Of a DNA stretch of 64,000 nt, positions 17,634-39,039 are shown piece after piece; the first letter of the stretch is position 1; each line of letters opens with the position of its first letter. Below the pieces are notes generated by a model that was not told where the DNA came from, ran no database searches, and was given only the letters and a program-made list of their open reading frames with translations. The stretch lies in assembly GCA_017499595.2 (NCBI GenBank), contig CM039001.1:310001-374000 (forward strand), read 5' to 3'. The DNA is from Psilocybe cubensis (lineage: Eukaryota). A program made the position numbers and the translations under genes.

Positions 17634-19292
17634 TCATGAATTTCTAAGACTTTCAACCAGATCAAGGGTCTCCTTCATCCCCTCGACAAAGCATCGCAGC
17701 ATATCTGTGTGATCTCCATCACGAGCCTGTTCGATTGTGAAGGAAATCCATTGAGTTGTGCACGTCATAGAAGTAACAAAACAAATACTCACTTTCACAA
17801 TCCCTTTATAATACTCAGCTCTCTGCGCCATTGTTATTGAGATAGGAGGGAATTTATGCTGCAGTAGCGGGAGCGATGCAATGATACGCACGAGTCGCCC
17901 ATTTCCATCCTACGGATTGAAATTAGAATTTTTTAGAAATATGGTATCGCACATTCGACGGATCCACATACATCAAATGGATGACAGCTAACTAACGTGA
18001 GGTGCGTCCAGCTAGCACTAGCGAACGGATTCCTCCACGTCCTGATCCATTGCTACAACAAAACATAAAATTTCAACACAAATCAGTCTTGAAAATTCGG
18101 AAAACTCACCTTGGCCATTCTGCATATATACTCAAACTCCTTGTCGACCTCTGGGTATGGGCACATTTGAACATTGTAGCTGCCTGATATCACGACTGTT
18201 TTCCATGTCTCTGCACGTGTAGCCCCGGGTGCGATGTAGCGGCTCTCCAGAAATCGACTAGTCTTCATGAGGGTAGCGTGAATTGCGCATGCTGCGGACA
18301 TGGAGAGGGGAGCGGTGTTGTTGACGAGGGGGGTTAATTGCTGATAGGCCTGTCGTCATTATGAGTAAATTTTTATAATATATTTGAATATGAGGATAGA
18401 AGTACATACAGTGACTGTATCTCTCAAGATAGATCGAATCTTGTCTGGATGGGATAGCGGGCTATGCGGTTCTGTTGAAATTACACCTTCATCTAGTCCA
18501 CGCCTGATAAGGTCTTGCATAGACTGTTATATTTCCTTCAGTTTACCGCATAACCGCTGAGAGACTATAGCTTACCTTCTCCTTCAGCAAGAATGTACTT
18601 TCTACGTGATTCGTTTCAATGGCCAATTTGACAAGGTACGATGCGTAAAAGGTTGGATCTTGGTTCAATGTGTTCCATCGCTCTTTGAGCTCAGAAGCAC
18701 CGGGAGGCAGCTGCGGTTGATCTGTCGGAAATTTGTATTCCTTCGTCGGCTTCCAAGGGCGATAATAGGTCACTAAAATAGTCCAAATCAGTGAGCGGTA
18801 AAGTATTATGACCAACAGCAAACGACATTACCTTGACACGATTTCTCCAACAGCGCGTTCGCCAACCGCTCAGTTCTCTCTGAAATTGCCTGCAAAAACA
18901 CATCCAGCTTTTCATCGCAAACGCTCAAGCGGCACAAAATGTCCTGCGCCTGTAGGGAAACGGGTAAGGGATACGTAGCAATGCGGAAGAACTGGTAAGA
19001 TCTTCACTTTCCTGTAAAGACCAAGTGCAATCGCATCTCCTCCAAGCCGAAGAACCAGATTAGCTTTCCTGACTAAGAAATAAGGGTGGGCGCGTTCTGG
19101 GTATTTCTCGAGCAATTCTTCATATAATGATACTGTGTCAGCTAGTTCGTTTGTTTGTATCAGTCGTTCTCTGTCCTCCTGGGATATAAGGTCGGGTATT
19201 TCCTGTCAAAGTAAATGTCAGAGCCTGAAAAGCATATCGGAGGTACAGGAGCCCGAGTATACCTGCAGGGCTTCTGAAGCGTATGACTCCAT
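17634..19292 (-). CDS. Fic-domain protein (AMPylase-like) with N-terminal TPR-like helices
   Basis: Spliced catalytic motif CHPFD|DGNGRLVR matches HPFx(D/E)GNGRxxR; upstream LAIETNHVES resembles the (S/T)xxxE(G/N) inhibitory helix; YEELLEKYPERAHPYFLVRKANLVLRLG is TPR-like. Start codon uncertain. Confidence 0.88.
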
Positions 19293-19484
19293 CGTGGTTT
19301 GACTCCAAGTGGAACCATCGCGGGAAGAGCCAACAGTTGCCAAATGATTACGTACTAACCATTTATCTAATAAAAGATTGGCTTCGCCAATTCGGGCCTT
19401 GCTGGTGTTGGGACGTCGAACAACGGTCCGGCGCACACCGGAACCCAGCCAATATGCAATTTATTTCTACTACTAATTATGTCT

Positions 19485-20368
19485 CTACATTATGCAAAGC
19501 CCCTTTCCATTATATGTACCTGTGTCGACTGGTTAGGAGATGGACCTTATAGTGACAATAGAAAACTTACATATGTTCTTCGATGGCACATCAATTACTG
19601 TGGCAATCCGTGCATGGTCATCACAACATTGTCCACCAAGCCTCCAAATCACGTCGGTCACTCCGAAAGCGTTGTGGCATGGCGCGGCCGACTCGCCGTC
19701 CGCTGAGAAAGGGATAAAGAGTACGTTGTTACCAGTCAGCGATTTTGGTGACTTCATGCAATAGTGATCCCGTGAAGAGCCCTGATGGCGCAAGTTGAAT
19801 CCGTAAGATCGGTACGACGAGATGAGAGGCTCATCATCACGTTGCGCAAATTGAATAACTGCCGATTTGTTGTTGAGTAGGTCTGGATACAGGCAGACAG
19901 CTCCCTCATGGCTAATGAAGTTCATGTGGAGAGTTGATGCTGCTGAGAAGATTGGAAGGAAATTTAATGATGATGCCGAGACTGTGATGATTATAGACAC
20001 CGTTGACGTTGGATGGCGGAACACAGAGACGCGCTGGATGTAAGAACTTGGTCTATTGTCATCCGTTCTATCCACCAAAACATAACCGTGGTTGTAGCAG
20101 AACGCATCGACTCGGTACTCGTTAGCCTCAGAAACGCTAATATTGATGTCGTTGTTTGGCAGGTCCAGATGCGTGAAAAACATTAGAGCCCCATTATCAA
20201 TCAAAACACTGTTAGACCACTTTAAAAAGCGCAAGAAACCAGGTACGGTGCCGACGTCGTATGGACTAAGCAGGTCTGCTAGTCTTGAAATAGCTGGCAA
20301 AGTGTTATAAGACGCCTATTACAATAAAACCCAAACTTACCTTCATATGACGATGGGAAGTCAGCCAT
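19485..20368 (-). CDS. Cargo paralog A: nucleotidyltransferase-fold-like protein, degenerate catalytic motif
   Basis: 3 exons; SVLIDNGALMFF...NDINISV, STLHMNFISHEGAVCLYP, HYC...VIWRLGGQCC; short first exon and last intron shared with paralogs B, D, E. Confidence 0.75.
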
Positions 20369-20581
20369 AGGTAGTCAACGTTAAGACTCGGAGACAAGGA
20401 CCTTCCTCAACATCACCGTCATGACGCCTCGCCAGTCCGAGACACAAAAACCAATTGGAATAGATTGAACATCTGATTAGATTATAGGTATCTGATTACG
20501 TCAGTCTTGACCAGATTACCACTTATATAATTGATATGTCTCTGCAGTGAAACTACTCGAGCACCCCACATCCTCTCTTCT

Positions 20582-21470
20582 ATGATGGCGACACAGTCCG
20601 CTCGCACAGGTACATGCATTTTCCATATGTACTTTTCAATGACGCGGTTTTCTCAAGCACGTTTTTATTCACAGCAAGGCAAAAAGTTCACGACATCATA
20701 CGACCCTTCGGCGTAGGTAGTGTGGACGACTTCCTATATTTCTTGAAGTGGTCCAGCTCTGTTATTACAGGGGCATCCGCGCTCGCATTTTTCACGGGTG
20801 AAGATATTACTCCTCATAACCTCTCTCTGTCTGTTAGTCAGACTGGTCGTTCTCGTGTGCACGTCTTTTGTGTGCGACACGGATATGAATATTTGCAAAC
20901 CTTCCACTCAGACAACGAGCAATCAGTTTGGACCGAACACAGCTACTACTGTAACTTTGAATCCGGACGCCAGATTACGGTTACAATATCCAGAAATCAT
21001 GTCCCATTTTTGCCTGTGTTCAATTTCAGCACGACGTTTGGCATGAACTTCATAACACCCCAGGGCGCGGTATGCTTGTATCCGGAGTATTTGCCGAGAA
21101 ACCAAGGCGTCATTCTTTATAGGAGATCGGACAATGAAGTCATTGGGGAACTCCTTCACCGTCACAATTTCATTCTGCAACCCTCATGCGATAACACTGT
21201 TCGCTCCTTCCTGGAGCACCCCCGAGGAATGTCATTGGACACCATATTATTCATTCCTTTGGACAACTCATATGTTGGCGCGTCCCCTATGCAACAGTAT
21301 GATATTGTTTGGCGTCTCGCGGGCCAGTCTGGGTCCCCGAATGGCGCTGTGATTGACTTACAAAGTGACCAAATTCGTGGGTTCTCTAAGACTTTCCGTC
21401 GAGCAATAACGATCTAAAACTTTGCAAACATCCAGATGTACTTGAGGATTACGGTATTTTTGAAATATAA
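20582..21470 (+). CDS. Cargo paralog B: nucleotidyltransferase-fold-like protein, degenerate; head-to-head with A
   Basis: 3 exons; FLKWSSSVITGASALAFF...HNLSLSV, STTFGMNFITPQGAVCLYP, DIVWRLAGQ; closely similar to A (FLKWS.SV). Confidence 0.75.
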
Positions 21471-21653
21471 CGTGTTCACCAGCTTGTATTGAACATGTAC
21501 TTTACACTGATATAATTAATATTGCAACCTAATGTGCCCATAATCTTTGTGGGCGAACGCTGAACTTTTTAACAACCTTAAGCACATTGGCGTCTCGCTT
21601 ACTGGTATCTAAGCGTCAGCTAACTTCATTACAATTAAAACAGAGCACTATGC

Positions 21654-22941
21654 TTACGGTCCGTTCCTTCTCCACACAGTACCCTCGCACCTTTCGTTGA
21701 TGATTCTCCAAAGAACCTCCGATTGGGTTGTGTAGCAAAATTTGAGGCCTTCCCCTCGCAGTGTTGTAAACTCCAACATAACACGCCTGTACCTGTCATA
21801 CCAGAAATACCACGTATTCGCTTCAAACACAGATGGGCCTGTGGGGAAATTTGTTTTTTCGAGTGTGTAAGTCCAACATAATGCATCGCCAACCCGACGG
21901 CCCCCCATTGGGAACATACGAGTCCCTCTCGTTATATATCGCACCGGAATTGTTTCCTCGCCTCCTTCTTCCCGTGGATAACTAATGATAAGGTCGTCAA
22001 TTTTCTCGATCAATTTGTCTTGCATTGTTGGACTGAGCATCATCCACGTTGCTGGATCCGGAATTGAAAAAGCAATACCATAACCCCTGTGGTGATATTT
22101 TATGACTGCATTCTGGGTTCGACGAGCCATCATGTTTGACTTCAACAACGAGAGTCTCCTAGCCAAAGTGGCCAGTGGATAGAGACAGTACGCCTTTTCA
22201 TATGTAATGACGTTCATGACCGCGGCTGCATGTAAGTGTATTATATCAATGAGATCAGTCGGTAGAAGCCACGGGTCAATACTCACTGCTGTGGAAAGGC
22301 ACAATGCATTCCATTACACTACCTAGTGCCGTAATCAACTGCACTTTTGACGAACCACGCACGAATAACAAAATGGACCCTAGGGTATCGTAACCGCCAT
22401 GAGGAAAATGGACATATTGATTATCCAGAGCCACCTCTGGAGAGGTCAACTCAGGCAATACATCCATTATGCGATATTCGAATCCACGGGTTTGGAGCCA
22501 GTGGACTACTTGCCATGCATAGCGGTGTTCAACATATGTATCCAGGTCGTCCGGAACCCAATGTTTATCCCGTGACAAAAAATGGAGGGCCGCCGAACCC
22601 GATATGACAAGGCCTGTGTCGTATTGAAGACGACGAAAATCGTCATATTCACAGGGCATAAAGAAACGACACAATAATTTTTCAACAGACAGCGCCCTGC
22701 CCATATATCTGTTGACCCTTTCATGTAGTTCTAAGCAAGTCCATGACAGCCGGTACAGGGACCTTTGATCCAAGTGGTCCATGAGAGAGTCATCGTACTC
22801 GGTGGAAAAACTCCTGCAAACCAGTCAGCCACCAAAGCAAAAACAGCAGAAAGAGAATACATGCGCAAAAAAATCCATTTTCAACAGATGAAACAATTCC
22901 TTGTGCTCGGGGGCAGTGGTCACCTTTCCAGGCTCACTCAT
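21654..22941 (-). CDS. Cargo paralog C: F-box-like N-terminus plus nucleotidyltransferase-like domain with intact GS..DxD
   Basis: MDHLDQRSLYRLSWTCLELHERV (F-box-like); TGLVISGSAALHFL...PDDLDTYV; KVQLI; FHS|TAVMNVITYEKAYCLYP; KYHHRGY; RRVGD. Exact start and end uncertain. Confidence 0.78.
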
Positions 22942-23087
22942 TGCTTTTATATCGAAGTCCATTGAGTCAACTTTAATCAGGAGTAAATATTTGGAACAAA
23001 TACAATTAAAACACGGAATAGCTATACTACGCAAGTGCAATGATTTGGGAGGGCATGGCAAATTACTTTCCCAATACCGATAATATT

Positions 23088-25015
23088 TTACTTGGTTTTC
23101 TTGGTAGGACTTCCTTCCCCATCTCCTTGGTCCGTAACTTCTCCTGGGCAAACCAATTAAACAGTATTCCACGTTAAGACAGCGAGGTACTTACTTGAAC
23201 GACGTAAGCTTGACCGTCTGGTTTCCGGTTGAGACACCACAGGTACCGGTGCCACAGGAGCTGAAGATGTCGCAGGGTCACTCTGTTGCGAACCACCATC
23301 GGACGAAGATCCTACGAGCCCCGAGGCCACACCTCCGCTTGTGACCGTGACGTTAGGTGCGACAGACGCTTGCGCGGGCGGAGGAAGGACAGTCCCAGGC
23401 GCAGGTGCCGGAGTGTCACGCACTGGCGCAGGCGCAGGAGGGACGGACACAGGCGTAGAGGCAGGCGGGACAGACCCAGCCGGAGGAGGGATATACACAG
23501 GTTCCGGGGCCGGTGGAACAGACACAGGCGTAGGCATCGGTGGGACAGACACGGGAGCAGGCGGCGGTGGGACAGACACAGGCGCAGGCGTCGGCGGGAC
23601 AGACACGGGTGCCACAGGGGGAGCCACAGGCACAGGTGCGGAAGGGATCGACGTCGAAGCAATAAGTGGCGGCGCCTGCGCAGAAGCAGACGCTGCTGCT
23701 GCGGGTCGCATAAGCGTCGGAGGCGGGGACACCCCCATTACCGGTGTCGTTGGACCACCAGCGATATCATGGGACGCCGGAAAAGAGGCGTGTCCTGGTG
23801 CCCCAGTGGCGCTGAGGGCCGTATCTACTGTGAAAGATGTAGCGGATGAGGTACCTAGAGAAACATTAGTGCTATGAAAGAAGATATATAGGTGAAGTTT
23901 GGCATACTGGTTTGGTATGCTGCTTGTGGTCCTACAGCACTACTCATTGGCAAAGCCAGATGAACCGTCATAGGGTTGGCGGTGAAAGACGGTTGCTTGA
24001 CCTGACTAAAGTCATGGCGAGTAGGAGTCTGAGCCTGACGGGGCGGTTTACGGGGCGAGATCATGCGAATAGGGCTCTGCAGAACAGGTGGGGGTGGACA
24101 TAAGACACTCACACTTTCAACTCTCGCCGAGAAAGTATCGGATGCATCTGTGCGAGTGGATGTGACGGCCATGTGGTAGTGGCGGAGAGTGAAAGTCACT
24201 TCCACCACGGAACCTATCAGCAACAAGGCGAACAAGTCTGGGCGCGTAATTAGTGTTTCCTCCACGTCGTACACAGGCATCAGTCGGATATGGTGAGAAT
24301 TTTTTGCACTGTTGAACCAAGGGGTGCAAGCGGGGTTGACTGTATATCCGTATGTGGCACTGTCGCGCGCGGGAGCTGTACATATAGCATTAGAACTGTG
24401 TAATCTCGCCAAGAAGAAAAGAGGCTTACTCGTATTTTCAACACTCTGAGAGAAAACGGCGATGGTCAGATAAGGGGAAAAGGAATAGATCCAAATGGCA
24501 TTACACACCCTTGGTTCCCAAAGCGGAAAACTGAACCGCATAGTGCGCGTTTCCTTGTTCAGGAAATGGTTGTGCTTGTTCGTCTTCGCAATCGACGTTT
24601 GACACTCGGACAGGTTATCAAAACTCGTATCATAGTCTCCGCCCAATGTGAGAACCTGGAGAGGCTTCCCAACATCGAACACCAGCTTCGCCCCAATGGC
24701 ATTTCGCAAAGGATCTTGCCACATTGGATTGAAGTTCCCTTGGGGCTCGAGGTACGCGCGTGTGGTGACTTGACCAACCACAATCAACTGGACAGGTTCT
24801 ATGGCGTCTGTGGGCCTGCCTGGCAGGGCTAACACCTCCTGCCCGGCACCACGCCACTGCACGTATTCCTTAAATCCAGGAGATGCAGTGAATTGCGGCA
24901 AGGTCAGAAGTTGTTGACGAACATAGGCCTCGTTGAAAGGCATGGTGGCGCTAGGGCTAAGTCAGTAAAAGATTTATAACAGGAACAAGTCAGATACATA
25001 CGAAGAAGTGTTCAT
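23088..25015 (-). CDS. Cargo gene: putative OB-fold/SSB-like domain plus Pro/Ala/Ser-rich tail
   Basis: Multi-exon; beta-rich pattern LIVVGQV..YLEPQGNF, MPVYD, LIGSVVEVTFTLRHY...FSARVESVSVL; C-terminal PAPVSVPP repeats and terminal SPTKKTK. The fold is inferred. Confidence 0.65.
23430..23640 (-). repeat. Coding minisatellite, ~27-bp unit (PAPVSVPPx)
   Basis: Recurrent gggacagacac(a/g)gg units encoding APVSVPPT/PAPVSVPPP/PAPVSVPPM/PTPVSVPPA. Confidence 0.85.
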
Positions 25016-25807
25016 GGCGACAGACAGCAGCACTTGTGAAGCGGAAACTGAGGGATGGTGGTCGTTGAAAACCAAGCTAATTATGTCTTAACGCCAAACC
25101 TGCCGCTTTTATGTCTACGAGTGATCCTTGGTGACGTAGTCAAACAGATACGCACCCGCCAAATTTTACGCCAAGGTTAAAGGTTTGGCCAATGAAAGAA
25201 GGGAGGGTGGTCGCAACAAATTTGAGGCAAGATGGCTGCATTCTGGGGACTTCCAATCCGATTTTGAGAACGTGGGCCCGCTCCTTTGGTCAACAAAAAC
25301 GACGGGACAAGTTGACCAGGTCGGAACCTAGTCGCGTGTCCACATGGTTAAGTAAAACCCCTCTTCAAACATGGCCCAAAAACTCACTTTGGTACCGCAT
25401 GAAATTCATAGAAAAATGTTCCCCCCCCCGAAAAAAAAATTGTGTCGGTTGTGATCGCTGTCGGGCTCCCTTCATGGCAGGGTCCCTGGCGGGTACAAGT
25501 GAAACCGATACAATGAGCCACACATACTATGTGCTTACTTGCAACGCCATCCACTGCGATTATGAGACAGGTGTTCGTGCCAATTGGACAAACTGAGGTG
25601 AAGCAGTTGAGGTTAGAGAAGTAAGAGAACCAAACCCCTTTGGGGCTGTCATACAACGGCAGACCATCCGCGATCAACACACACAAACACAGCCATCGGA
25701 CCAATGTCCGATTTTCACGTCAGCAGAAGTTCCCTCACCGCCAGAAAGGGTAAAATAAACTGCGTAAATTCAATGACAGTACATGAACCGAGCGTTGGCC
25801 TGTGAAT

Positions 25808-26747
25808 TTAGTCGACTATTCTAATTTCTAACACCAGTGTATGCAACTGGTAATTGGAGTCGTGAAATAAAATAAATTCGACACGAACCAAGTGTCCAAT
25901 CAACTCCTTTGAAAAGTTTTCCACCGGTAATGAATCATTTCTGTCCCCTTTGCAAACTGTCATATACCCCATCGTATGATCCTCTCTCAACAGGCGGAGG
26001 TCACGTTGATATTCCACGGGTATTGGATAGTCAACATCAATATCACGATCCCTGTGGACTAAGTGATCATTCAGTATACAACAACCACATGCGTAGACAG
26101 GATTTCGGACCTTCGCCTCCAAGTGTCTAAGGTACATGGAAGGTTTGAGCAGTGTATACCACACGTCAGAGATTCACATTGCAACGTACGGATAACTTGA
26201 ACAACGGCGCCGTAAATGTTATGCACGGTTCGCCGTGAGCGGAAGAGAGCATCGGATCTGTTACTGAGTGTGCAGGCAATGCTTCTAGAAGGAAGCGTAG
26301 ATTCCCCATTGCTTTGGAAAAATCGACGTCGTAGCCTTTTGTTCCTCGAGGGCAGACCAGGTTAAAGATATGTTTGGCGTCGCTCAAGTTATTTCCAGAG
26401 TTTTTGTCCAAATTACCTAAAGGGCCCAACCATGCACCATCGTCGCTGATCACACCTACCACCACACATCGCTTTTGATGCGAAGCAGGCAGGCTATGTA
26501 GGCGAGAATATCCGTTGTTTAACATATACCAGGTTGACGTGCGGAGAAAGCTATCGCTGGCCAGATAGTCGTGGCACTTTTCCAAATGGAACCGTTGCTC
26601 CTCGATACTTTCTGCGGCCAGTATGTTCAATACCACCGTTAGTGGTCCATGACAGGGAATGCAAAGTAGTATGTTTAGCTCACCGTAGTTACCGTGGTAC
26701 ACTCTGCATCGGCGCAGTTGACTAGAGCAAAGGTAATTGAGATACAT
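25808..26747 (-). CDS. Cargo gene: second putative OB-fold/SSB-like paralog, without the Pro-rich tail
   Basis: Aligns by eye with 23088-25015: VVVGVI...WLGPLGNL, AKHIFNL..P, DFSKAMGNL, ITFTAPLF, LIGHLVRVEFILFH...LVLEIRIV. Start uncertain. Confidence 0.62.
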
Positions 26748-26993
26748 GGCCAGATCGTTGACTCGTGGTTGAAACAGTAATGAGTTAAGGTGGATGTAAA
26801 AGCTCCAAGATAAATTAAAACTGATTAGATCACTCTCATAGACTATCTTATCTCTATCTCTATACATGACGTCAAGATGATGTCACCCATTAAAGATACA
26901 TGGTGCCATATGAAGGCGGAGATGGTCAGGTTCGAGGTTTGAACAAAACTTTAGCATTAGTAATACAAAAGCAATGGGGTGACATGTAGTAAA

Positions 26994-27846
26994 TTAGGGA
27001 CCGATATCAGAGGATGAATGAATTTCCACTTGGAAGAAATGAGCGAAAGGAAGATACACAATGTAAGTCAACGCACCAACGTCATGAGAATAGGCGTCGA
27101 TGAATAAACCTGACCTGAGCTGACTGTCGCAACACTTTCCCCGCAGCCGCCATATGACATCCAGGTTACGCATGGCCAGTCGAGTCTGGTCGGGGTTGTA
27201 GAAGCCAACAATCATGGTGACCGGTGAGCGCAGGCTACGCGGTTGTGAAGCACAGAAGTGACCAACAGCATTTTGTTGTGGAAGAAAAGTGTAGCCCCGT
27301 TCGAGATATTTGTGGAGAAATAAACCATCCTCGTCTTCATCAAATTGTACAAGGCCTTTGCATTGTAGCGTAAGTTCAGGATACAGACAAACCGCCCCGT
27401 ACCAGGCAACGAAGTTCATCTGCAACGTCGAAGGGGATTGAAACAGGGGGGTCAAAGACGATTTGTTCCTAGAAACAATGATGGAGATGTATGAGGCATG
27501 GGACGGGTGTGAGTAAGAGCAGATCTGTGAGACAGTGGAACCAGTGTTGTCGTTGGAAAATGAGTTTAGGCGGTAGCGGTGTTTTAAGAGAAACTTGTGG
27601 AGGTCACGTCGCCCATCGCAAGGCACTTGTAGGTCTAGGTTAGAGGGTGTAAAAGCGATGGGTCGAACCATGGCGAGGGCCACAGAACCAACAACAACGA
27701 CATCGCAGGACCGCATTATTGCCAAAAACTCGTTAGGAGGGAGGAATGGGCGAATGAGGGATGTGAATGTTTCTTTATCTACAAGGCAAGTCAGGTCATT
27801 TAAAGAAAAGGTAAAGGGAGTACGCACGTTGAACAAAAGTAGACAT
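26994..27846 (-). CDS. Cargo paralog D: nucleotidyltransferase-fold-like (NxD)
   Basis: 3 exons; VVVVGSVALAMV...PSNLDLQV, STLQMNFVAWYGAVCLYP, KYLERGY, HFC...WRLRGKCC. Confidence 0.78.
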
Positions 27847-28098
27847 GGCAAGACTGAACAAAGAGAAGGGGTTTTCCGTATATGCAGGGAAACCAAACAA
27901 AAATGAAGAAGACAGTTTCACATTAAGGACGACGCCAACGGGTTTCATTAAACGGGTTGGAACAGTAGCAAGATAAATTTAGCAGATTAGGTCATAGTTA
28001 TAAATGCGTATACATGACGGCAACATGGTGTCGCCTGCTAGGATTATACTTTCCCCTAGTAATGATTGCATGCCAGGAAATGAAGGATGGGACTGCCA

Positions 28099-28974
28099 TT
28101 ACAAACTCTCGTCAGCAGGCGTGTGCACTTCGACTACAAATTATGGACGTTAACATATCAAAAAATATGGTATTAACTCACAAAGGCTTACCAACTTCGT
28201 AATTCCTCACGTCTACGAAGACAGCACATCTGGCAAAATCTTCACAACATTTACCATTAAGCCTCCACATTATGTCTGTGCTCTTTATAGCCGTCCGTGT
28301 TTCATCAAGTGGTAAAAAAGGGACGACATGAACAGCAGGGCTTTGAATACTTCGTGGCTGAGCCGTGCAGAAGTGGCCCAAATGATTGCCTTGATAAGTG
28401 ATACGATAACCCCGTTGCTCATACCGGTCCAGGAGTAACCCATCTTCATTTTCGCTGAAGTGTACTAAGCCTTTGTTTTGTAAAGTCTGCTCCGGGTACA
28501 GGCAGACTGCTCCATACCAAGAAACGAAGTTCATTTGAAGCGTAGAAGGTGCTTGAATCAGAGGAGCTAGAGTGGAATGTGCCCGAGAGACCGTCAGGGT
28601 AATCTGCCTGTGTGTCACTTTGTGGGAATAGGTTGTCAAGCACGACACCGTTGACCCCATATTACCCGTTTGTTCTTGAACCAGCCTATAACCATGATTC
28701 TGAATGTAACGTTCGATAGACCGACGGCCCTGGCACCCCACCAAGAGGTTGAGATCATGCGGCTCGAATAATAGATCTTGTATAACGCCCAATGCCATCG
28801 ATCCGAACACCACACCTCGTGAATGTCGCAGTAAGCTCAAGACATTGTCAACAGGCCCCAGATTGTATTCGGATAATAAGTGGTCAAACTTCGATTTTTC
28901 TGCTTGCGATTGTCAGAGGCACCATCACAAACTCACGAAACTCAGCGTGACGTACCCCGCGATGAGTAGGGCAT
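28099..28974 (-). CDS. Cargo paralog E: nucleotidyltransferase-fold-like (DxN), tandem duplicate of D
   Basis: 3 exons; GVVFGSMALGVI...PHDLNLLV, STLQMNFVSWYGAVCLYP, HFC...WRLNGKCC. Confidence 0.78.
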
Positions 28975-29084
28975 TTAATGCTAATGTCTGCTCTAGGTGG
29001 ATGGAAAACAACCTTGGACGTGATCACACACATCAACATATAGGGGGAACAGGATGACGTCACATAGGAAGGCCAAGTGCACCC

Positions 29085-30104
29085 TTAATACAATGTGTAC
29101 TCTAAATTAATAAAACGACGGAAGTGTTGGCAATGGACATTGTCGCAACGGTTTTTCCGAGCGGAACGCCACCTTATATGTTGACCAGATTGTACAAAAT
29201 AATCAGGTGGTGAGACGTGCTTGCCATAGTCCTTGTCCCCATGAAATCCTCCCCAACGCATAATCGCCACACCACCTCCAGCGGTGATCCTCCTCCATAG
29301 AACGGGGCATGTTTCGCCGCAAGGTTCCGACAAAACCAAGCCATCTCTGTTCCAAAGGCCGAAGTTGAACTCCTCGTACGGTGGCATGATAATATCGTCC
29401 ACATCATTCCGAATATACAAAAATTGTCTTTTGGCGAACAACTGCGGGTAGAAGCAGTATAGCCGCGTGTGTGACAACGCAAACATTTGCGACGACGACG
29501 GCGCAGAGAGGAGGCCAGGTAACGTTTTATCATCAGTTGCTAAAAGCAAACAGACTTTCATTACGCCATTCCACTTATTCAGAAATCTCAGCATATTATT
29601 GCTAAGCATAGAAGGCATTACATACCGAGAGATATGTATGAAATCTTTTCAAGCCCTTACGCAGTGACATTTCCACGTTTCCAGTGTTTTCTCCATGATA
29701 TCCTTGGGAACGGACAAAGGAATCAAAAGAACCGAAAGCGTAACGCCTTGGTAGAATGATGTCGAGCTGGATAGGGTACACCTGTGTGTATATGGGATTG
29801 TCCACAGACATGATGCATCGGACGAGCGGCCCCGTGATCAAGGCGTTGTTACTGCCCAGCAGGTGGAAAAAAATTTCCAGGGCGTCAGCGAAAAAAAGTC
29901 CAACAAAGTGTTTGATGCGACGACGGACGGATTCTTGCACCAGCCTCCTCAGGCGCATGTTGGTGTAGTTTAAAGCCATCCACGCGGACCAAGAGGAATC
30001 ATTGATGACGAGACCCAGAATTTCGTCGGGAAGTAGTTTAAAGAAATCTAAAGGGCGTTAAGTTATTGACAATCAAAGTCCAACCACTGCAACAAACCTT
30101 GCAT
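29085..30104 (-). CDS. Cargo paralog F: F-box plus degenerate nucleotidyltransferase-like domain with Cys-rich C-terminus
   Basis: MQ|DFFKLLPDEILGLVI...MALNYTNMRLRRLV (F-box LPxEI pattern); ALITGPLV...QLDIIL; SSSQMFALSHTRLYCFYP; CGETC...CDNVHC. Confidence 0.7.
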
Positions 30105-30262
30105 GTATGTTGAGGTTGCGAGTAGGTAGGAAGAATTGACAAAATTTTAACGGTCACGTAGTACACAAGTGTCAATAGCAAACTATATATAGAAATTGGG
30201 TGGCATCAGGAAATTGCGCCTTTGGTCTACTGAAATAAGTACAGACAGGGCTTGATACTCAT

Positions 30263-31048
30263 TCAAATAGTCTCAAAACGTTCTACGAGGCTACCATAGG
30301 CTACATCAATCAAAAGTTAGGTAGACAAAAAAGACACACGAACTGTTGAATTAACTCCGGAACCAAAGCGAGGTCGCGTCGTGTAAAATCCACGACAGTG
30401 CCTTCCAGCGTACATTTGGCAATGAGAATTTCCCCATACCAAGGAAGCAAGCGAGTAATGCCCCGTTGACGTAGGAGCGTTCTTACAAAATTGTTGTCGG
30501 CATCCGCTATACCACGGATTGTTGACTACAAAACATAATGAGAAATTTTGAAAGGGCAAGACTATGGAACGCCAACCTGGGAATAGTGGAATAAAACATA
30601 TTGAAAAGTGATGGAGGTTCCGGGCAAACTACGTTCGTAGGTTTGACAAAACTGTGCGTCAAACGCAGCAACATGATCCCACATAAATGGCCAGTGAGGC
30701 ATCCACATGGTGACGTCTAGATCCTCATAATCCTTGATATCTTCTTTACCTGCAGCGGCGGGGACATTCACAATATAAATTTTGGTAGTGGCACCGCCCA
30801 AGAACGCGCAGGAACGACGGGGAACATCCTATAAAGACAATGAGTTACACAGGTAGTGACTTTACTGCAAACACGTACATGCATGCATTGGCCCACAAAC
30901 GACGCCTGTTTCAAATTCTTCTTCATAGCTTCTACAGCCCGGTTGGTTACCAATACCCAGTGCTCCTGATTTAACATGAGGAAAAGAGGTCAAATTTATT
31001 TCAAGCGAAACAGGACAATAACGCGTGACAGAAATGTAAGACCCACAT
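30263..31048 (-). CDS. Small multi-exon cargo gene of unknown function, head-to-head with RepHel
   Basis: Canonical introns join ...KIYIVNVP...DLDVTMWMP...YVLFHYSQ|...NNFVRTLL...PWYGEILIAKCTLEGTVVDFTRRDLALVPELI. Ends approximate. Confidence 0.6.
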
Positions 31049-31057
31049 TGAAGCAAA

Positions 31058-34000
31058 ATGCAAATTGTATCCGCAAGTTGTCCAGCAGCATTTGTCGACC
31101 AGAACATCATTAAACGTGGTCTATTCAACCCGCACCCCATGGAAGCACTGTCCGATATTACTGTTTCTAAACTAAAAGAAATCATCCTTGAACATTCTCC
31201 CGAGAGGCTCACGCACGCTTCGCTCAAGACTCGCAGTCTTATGCTTGAAAAGATCGCCACCTTCCCACCCAATGTTGTGGAAGCAATTACTAGCGCTGCC
31301 AGGACAGTGATAATGGCAGGGCAAGGCCGTTACGCAAATTACGGTACGCGAAGGAAAGCTGCAGATTATGTTTGTGGAATGCGGCGCAAACGAATCAGGC
31401 GCCAGCCACCCAAGGTTGCCAGAGAAGACCCACAACCCACGGCCGCCGAGAGGCTAAATTTCTATGAAGTCTCCGATGAGAGACTCCAAGAGATTATTGA
31501 AGGCGATTTCCTGATGCCCCCGTCCATAGACCTATGCAAAGAACGACTTGCGAAGTTCATTGATGCGTCTTCGAATGAAGCATTGCGCCATCGGGTCTGC
31601 GCGTCATGCGCCAGGGAGATGTTAGAGGAAGAAATGAATGTGCTCAAACTGAGTGACATACCACATCGCCATCTTTTGAACCCGTATACCCCTCATCCCG
31701 CTCATGTACTAACTGAGGGGATGCTTCTCCATACTGGCTCTCTGCTGGACGGCAACAACGCTATACTGTGTTCCGAATGCCTCAGTTCCTTGAAGAAATG
31801 TAAACGACCGAAATTCAGCTTGGGCAACAACATGTGGGTAGGTGACGTACCACGAGAACTCGCCGATCTCACTCTCCCGGAAAAGATGCTAATCGCCATG
31901 TATTTCCCTGCGGCGTACATCATCAAATTGTTTCCCAAACAGAAAGGTGCACAACACTGGGATCGGTCACAAATGCATAGCGGCCTACGGGGAAACGTCT
32001 CAACGTACAAGCTTGATCCAAACCAAGTAGCCTCCATGTTAAAAGGGGGCAAAAACGTGTTCCCCCGCCCGTCGAAAATTTTACCTGCCACTATCGGAGT
32101 GACCTTTGTTGGGCCCAAAGGATTGCCGGAGTCGACCATGCCAGCAATGTTCAAAGTTCGCAGAAAACGTGTGCATGCCGCCCTAGTCTGGTTGAAAGCG
32201 AACAACCCACTGTATGAAAACATTGATATCAGCGATGAAAACTTGCAAATGTTGCCGGAAGATGGTATACCTTTGGAACTACTGGCCACCACCAAATACT
32301 CGTCTGACTTGCAAGCAGTTGAAAAGGAACATGCCGGGTACGTGCCAGAGGACGCGGCGGAAGAAGAAGGTAAGTTTATTCTTCGTGGGAAGTTGCGAGT
32401 TGCATGAACACCTTTCTTCTCAAGCATTTCAAGATGCGTTGAACGAAGCTGGACTCACGGAGATTGACGAGCACGACAATAGCCATGTTGAAGAAGGTAA
32501 ATAACCCGTTACTTTGTCTTGCAATCCTGGCACTGACCGTATTCTGACCATGACTTCAGGGGAAGTTCTACCGTCCGTTATCCCCCTTCTATCCCACGGC
32601 GTTGTCGATGTCCAGGGTGGAGATATCACCACGTCAGAACTGCTGGCTCATGCCCTTAACAACATGTGTACTGGCACAGACACGTCTCATCAAGTTCCTG
32701 AAGACTTCACAGTTCGTTGTGGAAACACCTTCGTAAACGAATACCCTCGCAGGAACCAGCAAAATGGGCGACTTCACCACGGGGGTCCAAGCAACCCCAA
32801 CCATCTCTTGGGAAGCTTTCCCGCTCTGTTCCCGTATGGCGCCGGAGGAATAGAAACAGATCGGCCTGTTCAGGTGCCCTACGAGACTCACGTTAGGTGG
32901 ACCATGGAATATCACGATCACAGGTTTCGCAAAGACCCGCACTATCCTTTCCAAGTTTTTGGTGTCATGCAGAAGCGGGAAGTCTGCAGATCGGCTGTTC
33001 TTCAAATGAAGAAATCCACCTTTATGCGCAACATGAGGCTAATATCAACATTGAAACCAAGGGACCTACTTCAAGCGAGCCAGGAAGAAAAGCGGGGAAT
33101 CACGTTTACCAACCCAGCGGTTCGAGCGTTACGGACAGAATTGAGGGCAGTCAGAAAGGCGGTTAAAGGAACAGATGAATCTCGGAGCTCAGTACGATCG
33201 AAAGTTTGGGGCACCAACCTGCTGTTCAACCCTCCATCCATTTGGATGACCATCAACCCGGCCGATACCCAAGATCCAATTGCACAGGTGTTTGCGGGAG
33301 AGGAGATTGACCTCGATGCGTTTTGCAATACCGCAGGGCCAGACCACACTCGTCGAGCCACGAACATGGCATCGGATCCGTACGCCTCGGCACAATATTT
33401 TCACTTCATTGTGAAATTGGTGTTGGAAGAGCTTTTGGGCATTAAAAAGTATCCACAGGGACGGTTGGAACGTGAATACGGCGTGCTGGGGAAAGTGCAA
33501 TGCTATATCGGCACGGTAGAGGCTCAGGGTCGAGGAACTCTTCATTTGCACACACTTATATGGCTGAAGGATGCGCCCAATGCAGACGAGATGAAACGAG
33601 CGCTATTATCAGAAAGGTTTCGAGAGAAAATGCGGAGGTATATCGAAACGGTGATTCAAGCGGATATTGGTGGAAAGACGAAAGAGCAAGTGCTGGCTAT
33701 TCCTAAAGTCGCAGGTGTTGGGTACTCTAGACCGGTGGATCCTCGCCATGCCACTGATCAAGAGTTGCTGGAGCAGCTGGAAAAGTTAGTGAGGGCCATG
33801 CAATATCATAAATGCACCGCGGCCGCATGTCTAAAATTAATCAACGGACGGATGCAGTGCAAACGGCGGGCACCCTTCGAGAAGGCAGTGCATGCATGGG
33901 TGGATGAAGTGGGCCGGTGGGGTCCTAAGAGACTGTGCGAACTCCTGAACGCTTTCAATCCCTGGATTATGCACGCATTACGGGCGAATCACGACTTGAA

Positions 34001-37000
34001 ATTGATTTTGAGCGGAATGGATACTGCAACCATTACGTTCTACATCACCAATTATGCCACGAAGAAACAACAGCGAACCTCAAACTTGTCCGCTCTGTTG
34101 GCCAATGCCTTTGCCTTCTCGAAAGCAGCGGACCGGGGTGTTACCGATATGCAGCTCGTGAACAAACGACTGATCCAACGTTGTGCCAATTCCTTAACTC
34201 GTTATCGAGAGTTTAGCGGCCCAGAAATAGTTAGCTACATCATGGGATGGGGGGATGTTTACGAATCACATCACTACATACCGATTTTCTGGGATCCGGT
34301 CGCCCGTACGTTGAAAAAGATGTATCCAGAACTTTGCAAACCAAGGTATGACATAGAACCACCAACACATTGACTTTGCGAGCTGACTGTTCCTTGACAG
34401 AACTATTCCACCACAACAGAGTCACGAGGAGAAATCCCCACCCACGACAGTCGAACCAGACGGTACAACCAGCGATGATCGGGAAGGGTCTGGTGGCAGC
34501 ACGCAGGTAGGCAGAATTTTTGTGTTATTTTAAGTAGCATTGTTGACGTTGCCACCAAAATCAGGAGCAGGCCCACGATGTTACATTGGAAATGGTAGAC
34601 GGACGTGCCATGATCAAAGATCAGTTGCGCGACTACGTTTATAGGGGGGAGGAATTGGAGCATATGAGTTTTTTAGATTTCATGCTGTTCACATACGAGG
34701 GAGATCTTGGGAAGAAAGGTGGACCACGTCCTGAACACGAAGGAGATGCGGGCCACGAAGGAGTCGAAAACGGGAGCATCAACGTCGAGTCGACAGGAGG
34801 TCTAGACATGGAGGAACAGGGCGATGGGGTGGCACGAGGTCGTCCTATGAGTCAACGAGTACCATACAAAGAAGGGGCAGGCAAGGCGAGCCGTTGTCGT
34901 ATTATCCGTGGACCGGGGCACGAGAGGCTACCAAGGTTCGTTGGCCGTTGGTTTCCACGAAATGACTGTATGGAAGATCATGAAAAAGAGTTCTACTTTG
35001 CGTCAATGGTTGCATTACTTTCGCCATGGACGGAGCTGCAATCGCTGAAGGGAGAGTGCGCCACCTTTGAAGCACGATTTCAACAACTTTTGGGCGAAGG
35101 CAAAAGGAGAGTACACACCGTAATCCACAACATTCAGTACTACTATGAATGTCTTGATGGAGCGCACGCGCGAAGAGAAATGGAGAAGAATCAAGGGACT
35201 CGAGACCAACCTGTGGAGTGCGAATTGGACTTCGAAAACGAGGAGAAAGAGATGCTAGAAGAGGAGATGCGAGCGGATCCGTTTTTCGACGAATTAACGG
35301 AAGAGGATGTAGAGATAGCGCGGATGGGCAAAATACCCGCCAGGGAGACGCTTTTTGCAGCGGCAGCACTCTATGAAGGAGAACGAGTCGGATTTTTTGA
35401 GGAAGAATGCCCAGACACAGTGTGGAGAGCAGGTTGTCGCGTGGCAAGAGGAGAGGAGGAAATAGACAGGATAGCAGCGTGGGACCAGCAGTTGAAAGAA
35501 ACTGTTAGAGTGACAAACGCAATGGATGCCTCGTGCGACAACATGACGAGCGATGAGAGAGAGCCGAGGGTATTAGGGTCTATAAACCACTTACCACCCC
35601 ATGTCGAAAGACTAATGGACGAGAGCTATGCACACTTTGATATGCAAACCGATTCAGGGCGTCCAGTCCGTGGTATCGAACGACGCCTTCTAGCGTACCT
35701 TAACGAGGAGCAACGTCGTGCCCATGATATTGTTGAAAGGAAGCTGGTGGAACATCTGACAACCCGTAAGTACTCATTCAGGCTAATGAAGTTCATGATG
35801 GAACTCAATGGTAGACAACAGATGGGCACGCCAAGCAGCTTTTGATGCTGATACTTGGGCAAGGGGGTGTTGGGAAGTCAATGTTAATCGGAGCTATTAC
35901 GGAGACATTTGACTTTTACGGCCAACTCAACATCTTAGCAAAGTGCGCCACTACGGGCATTGCGGCCACTGATATCGGGGGGCAAACGCTACATTCATGG
36001 GCCGGTCTTTCAAAAAATACCCCACAAACTGATGAATGGCTGGAGAAACCCTCGGCTGAGATGCTCGCTAAGCGAAAGCGAAATATAGAGGGGAAATCAT
36101 TCTTGATTCTGGACGAGGCTTCAATGGCCGACAAAACAGCCCTTCAACTAACGTCCGCCGTGACGGGTCATGTTCATGGCAAAGCGAGAGGTGCCAACGC
36201 CGATCTACCATTTGGGGGAATGCATGTAATTCTCACCGGAGACTTTCATCAATTTCCTCCGGTGCGTAAACCTCAAGGAGCGTTGTATGTGGAGAGCGAG
36301 AAGGACTCGGTGCGCGCAATGTTAGGCAGAGAAATCTTCAAACAATTTGAGACAGTTGTCATTCTCGACAAACAAATACGGGTGAAAGACGTACAATGGA
36401 TGGAGATTCTGAATCGCCTGAGAGTCGGAGAGTGTGACTACGACGATATCGATGAAATAGAAAAGTTGGTTTTGGAAGACCAGCGCTGTGTTGTACCCGA
36501 TTTTACTCAACCACCCTGGGATGACGCTATCCTAGTAACTCCTCGGCATGTAGTCAGAGAGATGTGGAATCAAGCAGCGATCAAGAAACATTGTCATCGC
36601 AGTGGAAACATCAGATACATTGTTGAAGCGGAGGATACAGTGAAAAGCACCGGAGAGAGGGCATCGATTGCTCAGCGATGCGAAATCGCAGCGATGAAAG
36701 AAGATCTCACAGGAAACCTGACGGATGTCATTGAAATTGCGGTTGGCATGAAAGCCATGATCAAGATAAACATTGCTACAGAAGCTGATATCGCGAACGG
36801 CACCAGGGGTATCATTCACGACATAATATTAGACGAGAGAGAAGGAAGACATCCAGTAATTGAAAATGGTGTGGCGAAACTGAAATATCCTCCGGCCATG
36901 TTGCTTTTCAAACCCAACAAACCAACTCATCTACGTTTTGAAGGCATTGAACCGGGGCTGATACCTTTGACCCCCTCTGAAGCAAAAATATCAGTCAAAC

Positions 37001-37344
37001 TGGAGGGCGAGAAGAAAGCGACGACCATTATGCGGCGACAATATGCCATCACGGCTGGCTACGCGTTCACGGATTACAAGTCACAGGGGCAAACCATTGA
37101 GTATGTCATTATTGACCTAGCACCCCCTCCCAGCGGCAGTTTATCACCATTTGGGGCGTACGTGGCCCTGTCAAGGAGTCGGGGTAGAGATACAATCCGT
37201 CTGCTCAGAAAGTTTGACCACAAACTTTTTCAGCACCATCCATCGGAAGATCTTCGAGCGGATATGAAGAGGCTGGAGGAGTTGAATAAACAGACGAAAG
37301 TACGATGGGAATTCGATCAACAACAGAGAATCGGATTATATTAG
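31058..37344 (+). CDS. Helitron-type Rep/PIF1 helicase (RepHel), 6 exons, apparently intact
   Basis: N-terminal Zn/DUF6570-like region (CASC..CSEC, LRGNVSTY, VRRKRVHAALVWLKANNPLY); HUH Rep motifs IWMTINP, VEAQGRGTLHLHTLIW, YITNYATK; SF1B helicase GQGGVGKS, ILDEASM, GDFHQFPP, TDYKSQGQT, YVALSRSR. Five GT-AG introns restore one frame. True start may be 31139. Confidence 0.95.
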
Positions 37345-37743
37345 ATTAGAATACATTTTTTAGTAACAAAAGAAGGATTTGTTAATTTTGTGTACGAGGC
37401 TGAACGACATGGTTAGTGAAGATAGAAATAGGTATGATGAAGACTCACATTGGTAGGACGGTCCATTGTCAGATCGTCAGAGTTGATGGTAAGCCACATC
37501 GAAGGGGGGCTGGTTACTGCATTGTTGGATTGGGGTGCAGACATGACGGTGGTCTTTGACTTCGTCAAACAGACGTGATGACAGTGGACTTCGACTTCTT
37601 AGGAATATATGCGGAGAGTTGAGCCTGTAGGATAAGGAGTGAGTTAGACAAGTCAAAGAGAAGTGAAAATTTAAATGGACAACCAGGTAGATGGCGTCGG
37701 TCATGAGTGTACAACGTTCAGGGAGAGGAGTACACAGTGCGAC

Positions 37744-37930
37744 AAGGTTTGGTACAGTCGTTAGAACCAAACAATGTCTCAACATTCGTCCTAGTCCAAA
37801 TGGCAGGGTAAGGTTTGGCAAACACATTAGAACCAAACAATGTCTCAACATTCGAGTGCAAGTCCCAATGGCAGGGTAAGGTTTGGCAAAGACGTTAAAA
37901 ATAGCTGTGACAAACAACGTCTAAACATTC
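37744..37930 (+). repeat. Tandem repeat, 66-68 bp unit, ~2.7 copies, with internal inverted repeats
   Basis: Units start at 37744, 37810 and 37878 (AAGGTTTGG...TTAGAACCAAACAATGTCTCAACATTCG...AATGGCAGGGT); the first two contain GTTTGG..CCAAAC and AATGT..ACATT stems. Confidence 0.9.
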
Positions 37931-38703
37931 ATCTTTTCAATAGTGGGGAGCCTTAGCTTTACAGCAAGGCCATCATCGACAATCAGCCTAATCAAGCTGC
38001 ATCAGCAGTGAATATTGACTTTTCATCCACCACCACTATTGGGCGCTAAGCTCCCAAGCCAACAACACCGTGGTCATCATGTACCAAAGTTATCTATTTT
38101 TCATGCAAACCGAAAGAGGTTTTGGCATGTCGGCATGATCCATTTAGTGCGAGCTTATTGAAGCCACTTTAACCTCGAGTCACGACTTTTTCAAAACGGC
38201 TGACCTTCTAGTGCCTATGGAGCAAAGTATAGGTCACCCATACCTTCTTCGTCGTTTTAGCTTCTAAATACACTGGAATGTAAATCTTCCAAGAGCAACT
38301 AGGACCAGACTTGTGTCAATGCATTGAACGACATCGGACTATATATATTTCAAAGCTAGTATTTAGCACATACAAAGCCCTCTAACTGGCTTAACAAGTC
38401 GTTATATGGTTTATAAGTTGTCGCGGATAGCCATTCAGCTACTCGCTCGGCCTATAGTGTCCACCAAAGAGTGTGCTAAAAATAACGCTGCCGCGCTATG
38501 GTATTTAACCTCTCGATGTTCCACTTGACCCACAGAGTATGACTTGCACTCATCGTCGTTGATCGACCTCTTGTCCACTTCTGTTTTATCAATCCATCAC
38601 CATCACCCGCAAATATTACTTCATAAAAATTATATCACTCTCGGCGAGTCTCAAAGATCTGCATATTACGCCTCACGATTCACCAATACACGAAAAAGAC
38701 ACT

Positions 38704-39039
38704 ATGACGCGAAGCATATTCACCCCGCTACTATCCGTTCTTTTCCTACTACTTCTAGCCAATTTTGAAATTGCCTTTGCTCAAGGCGTCGCCGACATTC
38801 CGCTCACGGTGGTTACAACGACGCCCACACCTCCAAACCGCCAAGCCGGTTCATTCAGCGGGGGTCGTCCGGGATGGGACCCGCGCTGGGGAATCGGGCC
38901 CGTTATTCCACCGCCTGGCGTACTGGATGAACTAAAGGTAGACGATAGCGACCCGCCGTCGTTTTCTGATCCTGAAACGGGAGACGGGAATGCAGGAGAC
39001 ACCTCAGGGGATAAAGTCGATCCGCCGTCTGATGAGTAG
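38704..39039 (+). CDS. Small secreted protein (111 aa), Pro/Gly/Asp-rich
   Basis: Signal peptide MTRSIFTPLLSVLFLLLLANFEIAFA; single exon; GRPGWDPRWG core and acidic tail. Confidence 0.65.
   Translation: MTRSIFTPLLSVLFLLLLANFEIAFAQGVADIPLTVVTTTPTPPNRQAGSFSGGRPGWDPRWGIGPVIPPPGVLDELKVDDSDPPSFSDPETGDGNAGDTSGDKVDPPSDE

Follow-up and report, generated by a model that had tools for sequence, protein, structure and literature searches.

A block of small genes stands directly in front of a Helitron transposase (RepHel) gene in a 64,000-nucleotide (nt) stretch of Psilocybe cubensis DNA (assembly GCA_017499595.2, contig CM039001.1, positions 310,001 to 374,000 of the forward strand; hereafter the window, in whose own coordinates all positions are given). 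The locus raises the question of whether these genes belong to the Helitron and, if so, whether they serve it or are merely carried along. Taken together, the results below make it quite likely that positions 19371-37972 form a single, recently mobile and potentially autonomous Helitron, and that its main cargo family, which has a nucleotidyltransferase (NTase) fold, recurs head-to-head with RepHel in several unrelated Agaricomycete Helitrons.

To locate the ends of the element, we compared contigs of three strains (X5, X6, and X7) and the raw reads of one strain (X11) over window positions 18801-38800, the runs having been chosen by their match to the flanking host DNA. A 222-nt contig of X5, with a depth of 18.2, skipped the whole block and ran from 19371 to 37982, with seven intervening letters equal to window positions 37974-37980. 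The empty site that the first-pass annotation had asked for is thus present in X5, joining 19371 to 37974 onward. Since the depths of the filled form (21.6) and of the empty form (18.2) in X5 add up to about that of the shared flank (38-42), this strain appears to carry one filled and one empty haplotype, while the filled form was present in X6, X7, and X11. No target-site duplication was seen at the joint, and an ambiguity of 1 nt (T) remains: because positions 19371 and 37973 are both T, ends at 19372-37973 are equally possible. In the preferred register the insertion lies between A (19370) and T (37973), and in the other register between T and C. The element, on the plus strand, is therefore 18,602 bp long, and the ends first proposed, 19466 and 37930, were corrected to 19371/2 and 37972/3. 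Beyond the joint, the empty haplotype of X5 differed from the filled one at 12 of 155 positions (37982-38137).

Other copies of the terminal sequences broke off at the same points. In all four runs, loose ends were found before 19369-70 and behind 19403-05 at the 5' terminus, and before 37942 and behind 37972/3 at the 3' terminus. These other contigs and reads matched only 19369/71-19405 or 37942-37972/3 and then continued into unrelated sequence. The 5' terminal stretch alone was held by three further contigs each in X6 and X7, and position 37955 was covered about ten times as deeply as the body of the element (215 vs 22 in X5, 829 vs 81 in X7). Such end-only similarity among copies is a hallmark of Helitron families, and the termini are common to a family of about ten elements. 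Because the empty allele lacks RepHel and the cargo together, and because the multi-copy termini stand exactly at the two ends of the block, the cargo lies inside the Helitron, as had been proposed, and the 18.6 kb are mobile as one unit; the opposite pattern, cargo genes standing syntenic in relatives without RepHel, was not what the empty allele displayed. Neither terminus recurs at ≤3 mismatches within the element or in the rest of the window, which makes a nested or composite structure less likely.

The raw-read depth in X11 was flat (36-60, both columns summed) over all 30 bins, and therefore a further copy of ≥90% identity is absent from this strain. For the annotated strain, the cargo proteins are on record in identical form twice, on contigs of 4.15 and 3.13 Mb, and their tags are colinear (4218-4219-4220 and 10267-10266-10265); the record suggests a second insertion. 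With regard to circular junctions, the only joint listed, across the contigs of X5, X6, and X7 and roughly 26% of the X11 raw reads, was the empty site, which is no evidence against circles. Low divergence between strains was considered as a sign of a young element and rejected, since in X6 and X7 the directly adjoining sequence shows the same degree of identity.

The 5' terminus (19371..19405, plus strand) starts with TAAAAG (or AAAAG) and contains a hairpin, ATTGGC-TTC-GCCAAT (19377-19391); a terminal inverted repeat of 10 nt also has its left arm here, GGCCTTGCTG (19394-19403, plus strand), as read from the sequence. The 3' terminus (37942..37972, plus strand) ends with AAGGCCA (or GGCCAT) and contains the hairpin GCCTTAGCT-TTAC-AGCAAGGC (37950-37970). 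The right-hand arm of that repeat (37961-37970, plus strand) forms part of this hairpin, which stops 2 nt short of the element end. The 5' hairpin has a fold energy of -4.9 kcal/mol, which against shuffled sequences is weak (z -1.3), and the 3' hairpin one of -6.1 kcal/mol (z -2.2). Several marks of Helitrons are present, namely a Rep domain (HUH and two Tyr) and a PIF1 helicase in one protein, the absence of a target-site duplication, and the sharing of termini only, with a 3' hairpin. The canonical Helitron1 ends, 5'-TC and 3'-CTRR, are absent, and the A|T insertion of Helitron1 is found only within the 1-nt ambiguity. According to Chellapan et al. (2016, PMC5148889), the Helitron2 variant is defined by a terminal inverted repeat that is asymmetric and by hairpins at the two ends. 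These features are found here, with weak statistics, and the insertion site is not TTTT|T, T-rich sites being a further criterion of that variant. The ends are Helitron2-style, not TC...CTRR style. Close to the 3' end, the stretch 37744-37929 holds a subterminal tandem repeat (37744..37897, plus strand; unit of about 66 nt, 2.3 copies, 86% identity). A motif of about 20 nt, AAACAAYGTCTMAACATTC, is found in every unit of about 66 nt and once more right before the 3' terminal hairpin, and the loose-end consensus before 37942 in other copies of the family resembles it. These repeats may be bound by the transposase.

The region is eukaryotic in character and contains many introns. RepHel (31058..37344, plus strand) is predicted to be a protein of about 1,990 amino acids (aa) encoded by six exons, with a DUF6570 N-terminus followed by a Rep domain and a PIF1-type helicase. 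Its open reading frame (ORF) blocks (31052-32407, 32505-34373, 34547-35845, and 35815-37344) are colinear and joined by five GT..AG introns of 55-63 nt, and Pfam matches were obtained for DUF6570 (7e-43), Helitron_like_N (1e-33), and PIF1 (1e-20). The translation contains the HUH (TLHLHTLIW) and two-tyrosine (FYITNYATKK) motifs of Rep. The helicase aligned to PIF1 structures, with the Walker A motif GQGGVGKS, and gave a weak match to Helraiser (7lcc); the Rep exon had no match at E ≤ 0.01 among the PDB sequences. Two full-length homologs (1905 and 1923 aa) were colinear over residues ~67-1917, with no break besides the introns. Judging from these four blocks, five introns, three domains, and colinear homologs, the spliced gene is predicted to be intact and uninterrupted, in agreement with the first-pass annotation.

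The cargo occupies the 5' two-thirds of the element, where 11.6 kb upstream of RepHel (between 19.5 and 31.0 kb) hold eight or nine genes, all antisense to RepHel except A2. The number depends on the 'unknown' ninth gene, U, which is fused to its neighbor A6 in the public model. At least nine intact genes with introns, nearly all of them antisense, had been announced for this block; the tight packing and, with the exception of A2, the antisense orientation were confirmed, while the count became 8 or 9, B2 being a splice model only and U a part of a fused model. In the case of the cargo genes, 'intact' refers to predicted reading frames that are open and spliceable only. No piece of the cargo (family A, B1, B2, or U) had a match above the cut-off in Pfam, NCBIfam, or PHROGs.

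Six of these genes were assigned to one family, here called A: A1 (19533..20368, minus strand; ~262 aa, one intron), A2 (20585..21417, plus strand; 255 aa, public P0002), the longer A3 (21516..22782, minus strand; ~381 aa, from a splice model made here), A4 (26997..27846, minus strand; public P0154, 251 aa), A5 (28178..28974, minus strand; ~247 aa), and the divergent A6 (29085..29979, minus strand), which the public models P0001, P0153, and P0155 (29085..30977) join with U. According to translated self-comparison and alignment, A1, A2, A4, and A5 share 24-46% pairwise identity, and the more distant A3 and A6 were included on the basis of a tree and shared motifs. The earlier view that the six NTase-like genes form one family was upheld on these grounds, and the NTase label is backed by the fold and motif described below. 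The public hypothetical proteins of P. cubensis are letter-identical to the window over their exons; for example, residues 8-255 of P0002 are 100% identical to 20671-21414 (A2). The public annotation also merges U, A6, A5, and A4 into a single model of 872-914 aa. The tags JR316_0004218 (A2) and JR316_0004219 (B1) flank A3 and are consecutive, so A3 is apparently unannotated, and by the same tag numbering B2 appears to have been omitted as well.

A profile of four window copies retrieved 1529 cluster representatives at E ≤ 1e-3, including 354 at E ≤ 1e-10. A feature search with Evolutionary Scale Modeling (ESM) placed family A among unnamed clusters found only in Basidiomycota and gave two weak leads, an F-box-bearing cluster and a virus-dominated cluster annotated as Gad2 (score 0.87). 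Most of the ten family-A relatives that were looked up were metagenome proteins, and two were from Pisolithus. We then turned to structure using A5. Its AlphaFold2 (AF2) model, made from a 61-sequence alignment, had a predicted local distance difference test score (pLDDT) of 90.1 and a predicted template modeling score (pTM) of 0.89. Foldseek found no PDB match at E ≤ 1e-3; E values started at 2e-3, with a query TM-score of at most 0.47, and the PDB matches listed were all of the NTase fold (CCA-adding enzymes, TUT7, TENT5/FAM46, MenT, URT1, and OAS3). Among predicted viral structures (BFVD), 59 matches were obtained at E ≤ 1e-3, the best at 8e-9, including a pithovirus 'tRNA nucleotidyltransferase/poly(A) polymerase', a phage 'nucleotidyltransferase', and, from giant viruses, proteins of the F-box, BTB, and ankyrin types. 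The family-A profile gave nothing meaningful against the PDB sequences (best E 0.13), and a word-seeded protein homology search with A5 gave no match, the public models being fused and too long.

The catalytic signature of Pol-beta-type NTases is hG[GS] x9-14 DxD. The family-A consensus contains GS and, 14 residues later, DxD (G in 58/61 sequences, S in 58/61, first D in 52/61, second D in 55/61), and the column of the third carboxylate is N in 30/61 and D in 14/61. The predicted structure and this motif support a Pol-beta-type nucleotidyltransferase fold for family A, at the level of fold and motif. Only one of the six window copies, A3, retains the full GS...DxD (as GS...DDLD). The others each lack at least one Asp: A1 has lost GS and the second Asp, A2 both Asp, A4 the first, and A5 the second, and A6 also belongs to this group.

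We also investigated whether family A accompanies RepHel elsewhere. Metagenome contigs were scanned with the motif FHSTxVMNF, which derives from relatives close to the consensus and is free of Helitron information, and RepHel was then located by tblastn with the window proteins. The scan yielded 24 loci (144 kb in all); another scan, with a pattern from the window copies, produced 120 pattern matches, none of which was confirmed. RepHel was found in 8 of the 24 loci. Of the 10 loci whose sequence reaches 3 kb or more upstream of the A gene, 7 contained it, or 6 of 9 if two loci that are 90% identical are counted as one. In all 8 RepHel-containing loci it lay on the upstream side of the A gene, in opposite orientation, and it was never downstream in the five loci with more than 3 kb on that side. 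The proposed link between the dominant cargo family and RepHel was thus recovered in the same head-to-head layout, with RepHel proteins only 24-42% identical to that of the window. Each of the linked A genes consists of one ORF (261-371 aa) in which the VISGS...DLD motif is intact. Two loci, L012 and L013, are 90% identical copies with different flanks, and their similarity begins about 230 nt past the A-gene stop, at a GC-rich palindrome; because this likeness reaches past the A gene, the gene lies just inside the 5' end of the element. An F-box scored above the Pfam cut-off on the RepHel-linked L019 (22.3 vs 20.5 bits) and was found in two of ten long database relatives of family A, and L017 had a sub-threshold match to NTP_transf_5 (E 0.01). 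When the ORFs flanking the A gene in RepHel-free loci were searched with Pfam, the only match was F-box-like, in L018.

Two further observations were made on these loci. Five family-A genes with their flanks (L007, L008, L009, L010, and L014) are 91-97% identical copies within one metagenome, and the A frame is split into short ORFs in several of them; from the sequences, the group looks like a decaying multi-copy Helitron lineage. At L023 (340-752, minus strand), a RepHel fragment from the PIF1 part abuts the start of the A gene, where the DUF6570 end is usually nearest, and the locus is probably a truncated or rearranged copy.

In a tree of 79 rows, made by a quick search and with Shimodaira-Hasegawa-like approximate likelihood ratio test (SH-aLRT) support only, A3 was placed in a 33-row clade (97) with five RepHel-linked loci, and a sixth, L004, in another clade. 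A4 grouped with A5 (99) and A1 with A2 (89), and these four, A6, and one database protein formed a six-row group (99). A3 and A6 are on long branches, and their exact positions are uncertain. For A1, A2, A4, and A5, even the closest relatives in the database are very far away in the tree (path length >3.3), and hence no recent host parent is visible. The window copies cluster as local duplicates, which fits the amplification in situ put forward in the first-pass annotation. Considering linkage and tree together, family A is likely to be a recurrent and conserved accessory gene of Helitrons.

The other cargo genes gave a different picture. B1 (23091..24943, minus strand; public P0151/P0157) encodes 553-577 aa with a long Pro-rich tail and belongs to a Basidiomycota-only family without a Pfam domain. 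Short direct repeats in its tail (window 23300-23700) encode reiterated PAPVSVPP units in the Pro-rich C-terminal half. B2 (25808..26867, minus strand; ~326 aa) is putative and based on a splice model made here only, and U (30565..30977, minus strand) is the N-terminal part of the public models that include A6. B1 and B2 had been described as single-stranded DNA-binding (SSB)-like genes, and the proteins of plant Helitrons that resemble replication protein A (RPA) had been cited alongside. This was not sustained: no cargo gene has a Pfam match to RPA or to an oligonucleotide/oligosaccharide-binding (OB) fold, BLASTP found no similarity between B1 and B2, hhalign aligned the two with a probability of 10.8% over 43 columns, and the AF2 model of B1 (pLDDT 31) was unusable. 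B1, B2, and U would be either lineage-specific passengers or accessory genes.

Could the Helitron be real and its cargo nonetheless without any role for it? The genes could stem from ordinary host capture, by end-bypass or in a chimeric manner, of a tandem cluster of F-box/NTase-like genes. Helitrons are known to capture genes (Castanera et al., 2014, PMC4289320; Chellapan et al., 2016, PMC5148889), family A is very large (1529 representatives) with an F-box on some members, as in host genes, the catalytic motifs are degenerate in five of the six window copies, and B1, B2, and U have no linkage to RepHel. However, capture does not easily account for a family found upstream of and antisense to RepHel in seven of ten evaluable loci in which RepHel is so divergent, in at least two clades, and inside the element boundary in L012/L013, nor for A1, A2, A4, and A5 having no visible recent host parent, and we consider it unlikely. 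Several other points weigh against a conserved Helitron function for this cargo, or against the element as delimited here. The five family-A copies that have lost at least one catalytic Asp could be decaying passengers, none of the window copies has an F-box by Pfam, and no relative of B1, B2, or U turned up in the 24 metagenome loci. The gene models are predictions, made here or taken from public models that merge neighbors, the PDB structural matches of the A5 model are weak (query TM-score ≤0.47), and the terminal hairpins outdo shuffled sequences by a small margin only (z -1.3 and -2.2). Three of the ten evaluable loci (L003, L011, and L022) have no RepHel upstream, the seven of ten is a raw count, and the phylogenetic breadth is limited because a few related metagenome records supply most of the linked loci. 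Finally, the two-contig record of cargo proteins could in principle represent two haplotigs and not two loci.

The presence and absence of the block could also be read without a single mobile element, either as a deletion allele or as two adjacent elements, a RepHel Helitron and an unrelated upstream block, that segregate together. The empty form comes from a single 222-nt contig in one run, the termini are non-canonical (no TC, no CTRR), and the hairpin statistics are weak. Against this, the joint coincides to the base with the limits of similarity of other copies at both ends in all four runs, shows no duplication or microhomology beyond one T, and belongs to a strain in which the depths add up (21.6 + 18.2 ~ 38-42), and no internal copy of a terminus was found at ≤3 mismatches; such an origin is very improbable. 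Still less credible is that family A consists of host genes favored as neighbors by inserting Helitrons, adjacency then reflecting target preference rather than cargo. For most of the metagenome loci, adjacency by itself does not tell whether the A gene is within the element or next to it, but all six window copies lie between the termini and are missing from the empty allele, the homology of L012/L013 runs past the A gene, and the orientation is constant in the eight RepHel-containing loci.

If the block is a single Helitron with its own accessory genes, RepHel would nick the 5' end, unwind the DNA, and peel off one strand until termination at the 3' hairpin, so that the whole 18.6 kb would move with the antisense cargo. 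U/A6 and RepHel are arranged head to head with 80 nt between their start codons, and this spacing suggests that one bidirectional promoter serves both. The ancestral accessory gene would have been an A3-type gene in which GS...DxD was intact and which often had an F-box ahead of it; the other five copies may have arisen by duplication within the element lineage, giving a diversifying array whose catalytic aspartates decayed; we infer that the array in the window is largely catalytically dead. Family A would most likely act on host factors to the benefit of the element, either as a substrate adaptor of the Skp1-cullin-F-box (SCF) type or as a nucleotidyltransferase that blunts host silencing or repair, and less likely in DNA breakage and joining. 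The host manipulation and virus-like character suggested by the first-pass annotation stay conjectural, with hints only from the giant-virus F-box/BTB/ankyrin NTase-like matches and the F-box on L019. By analogy with giant-virus F-box/BTB/ankyrin proteins and phage Gad2-type proteins, one may speculate that this NTase-fold family, often F-box-tagged, is a Helitron-encoded counter-defence arsenal, a possibility we regard as doubtful for now. The family would then divert the ubiquitin ligases of the host or attach nucleotides to host RNAs or proteins, shielding the rolling-circle intermediate from silencing or repair, and an arms race would drive diversification through tandem duplication inside the element.

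Accessory genes are not new to Helitrons. Plant Helitrons encode RPA-like single-stranded DNA-binding proteins, Helentrons carry endonuclease or OTU domains, and to our knowledge the 'cap' genes of fungal Helitrons have no assigned fold or family. The plant elements resemble the one described here in being autonomous with an accessory gene besides RepHel, but that gene has an NTase fold here, without an RPA or OB-fold Pfam signal. The best structural matches of A5 are giant-virus F-box/BTB/ankyrin NTase-like proteins and phage NTase/Gad2-like proteins, in which an adaptor domain is fused to the same fold as in the F-box fungal relatives, although sequence identity is 8-15% and the viral functions are mostly unknown. 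The closest fungal case is HELPO1 of Pleurotus ostreatus (Castanera et al., 2014, PMC4289320), which is at most 13.7 kb long and carries one to four domain-less cap genes downstream of RepHel that were found only inside Helitrons; one of them, capB, is conserved beside RepHel in several basidiomycetes. Both elements have an Agaricomycete host, an autonomous RepHel, extra domain-less genes, an AT insertion, and presence/absence between dikaryon haplotypes. HELPO1 differs in its ends (T[C/G] 5' and CTRR 3', against TA.../...GGCCA and an inverted repeat here), in its RepHel of ~1400 aa (~1990 aa here), and in its cap genes being downstream, whereas eight to nine genes stand upstream and antisense within 18.6 kb here. 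Unlike HELPO1 as far as described there, the cargo here is led by one multi-copy family with an assignable fold, the cap genes being compared by description only. FoHeli3 of Fusarium oxysporum (Chellapan et al., 2016, PMC5148889) has one ORF without domains, which lies upstream of the transposase in antisense orientation, and shares with our element, as do Helitron2-type elements, non-canonical termini, an asymmetric terminal inverted repeat, and hairpins. It differs in its Ascomycete host, its size of 9-11 kb, its one extra ORF in place of an array (compared by description only), and its ends TGCCT...CTCCTGT, and the group is given no established insertion preference. Cargo-carrying fungal Helitrons have therefore already been described, and the element of P. 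cubensis joins HELPO1-type and FoHeli3-type traits at a larger scale and adds a fold and a cross-lineage linkage. No published account of P. cubensis Helitrons, or of an NTase-like gene in a fungal Helitron, was found in the literature searched.

The DNA around the element consists of other genes. The host gene to its left (17634..18915, minus strand), noted previously as a Fic gene, proved to be real: the spliced model (18915..17634) contains HPFDDGNGR, split across an intron, and its single exons have no Pfam match. The Helitron stands about 450 nt upstream of the start of this gene and could affect its promoter. To the right, outside the element, lies a small ORF (38704..39039, plus strand) whose hydrophobic N-terminus resembles a signal peptide by eye, followed by a glyoxal-oxidase/galactose-oxidase-like gene (39446-41155, minus strand; GO-like_E_set 2e-22) in a region with a GC content of 0.56 at 40-42 kb. 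Further downstream, four paralogous segments form a tandem family (44820-45400, 49105-49670, 50385-50930, and 51845-52440) with 45-70% aa identity by tblastx. Two diverged copies of a multi-exon gene (1780-4140 and 11790-13640, minus strand; ~60-80% aa identity in blocks) were also observed, and Sugar_tr/MFS_1 Pfam matches in the 11790-13640 copy point to a duplicated pair of sugar transporters about 10 kb apart.

The locus offers an intact, potentially autonomous Helitron of 18.6 kb whose insertion segregates and is mapped to the base, together with a fold assignment (nucleotidyltransferase-like) for the dominant family of its cargo and evidence that this family accompanies RepHel in other Agaricomycete Helitrons, in a fixed head-to-head layout. 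It turns what would have been 'captured genes of unknown origin' into a testable idea, that of a conserved accessory function of a transposon. A large, unannotated family of Basidiomycota is possibly transposon-borne, which bears on gene counts and on the annotation of mushroom genomes. If the counter-defence interpretation were true, much of this family of 1500 clusters in Basidiomycota would be Helitron-borne and would not represent host genes.

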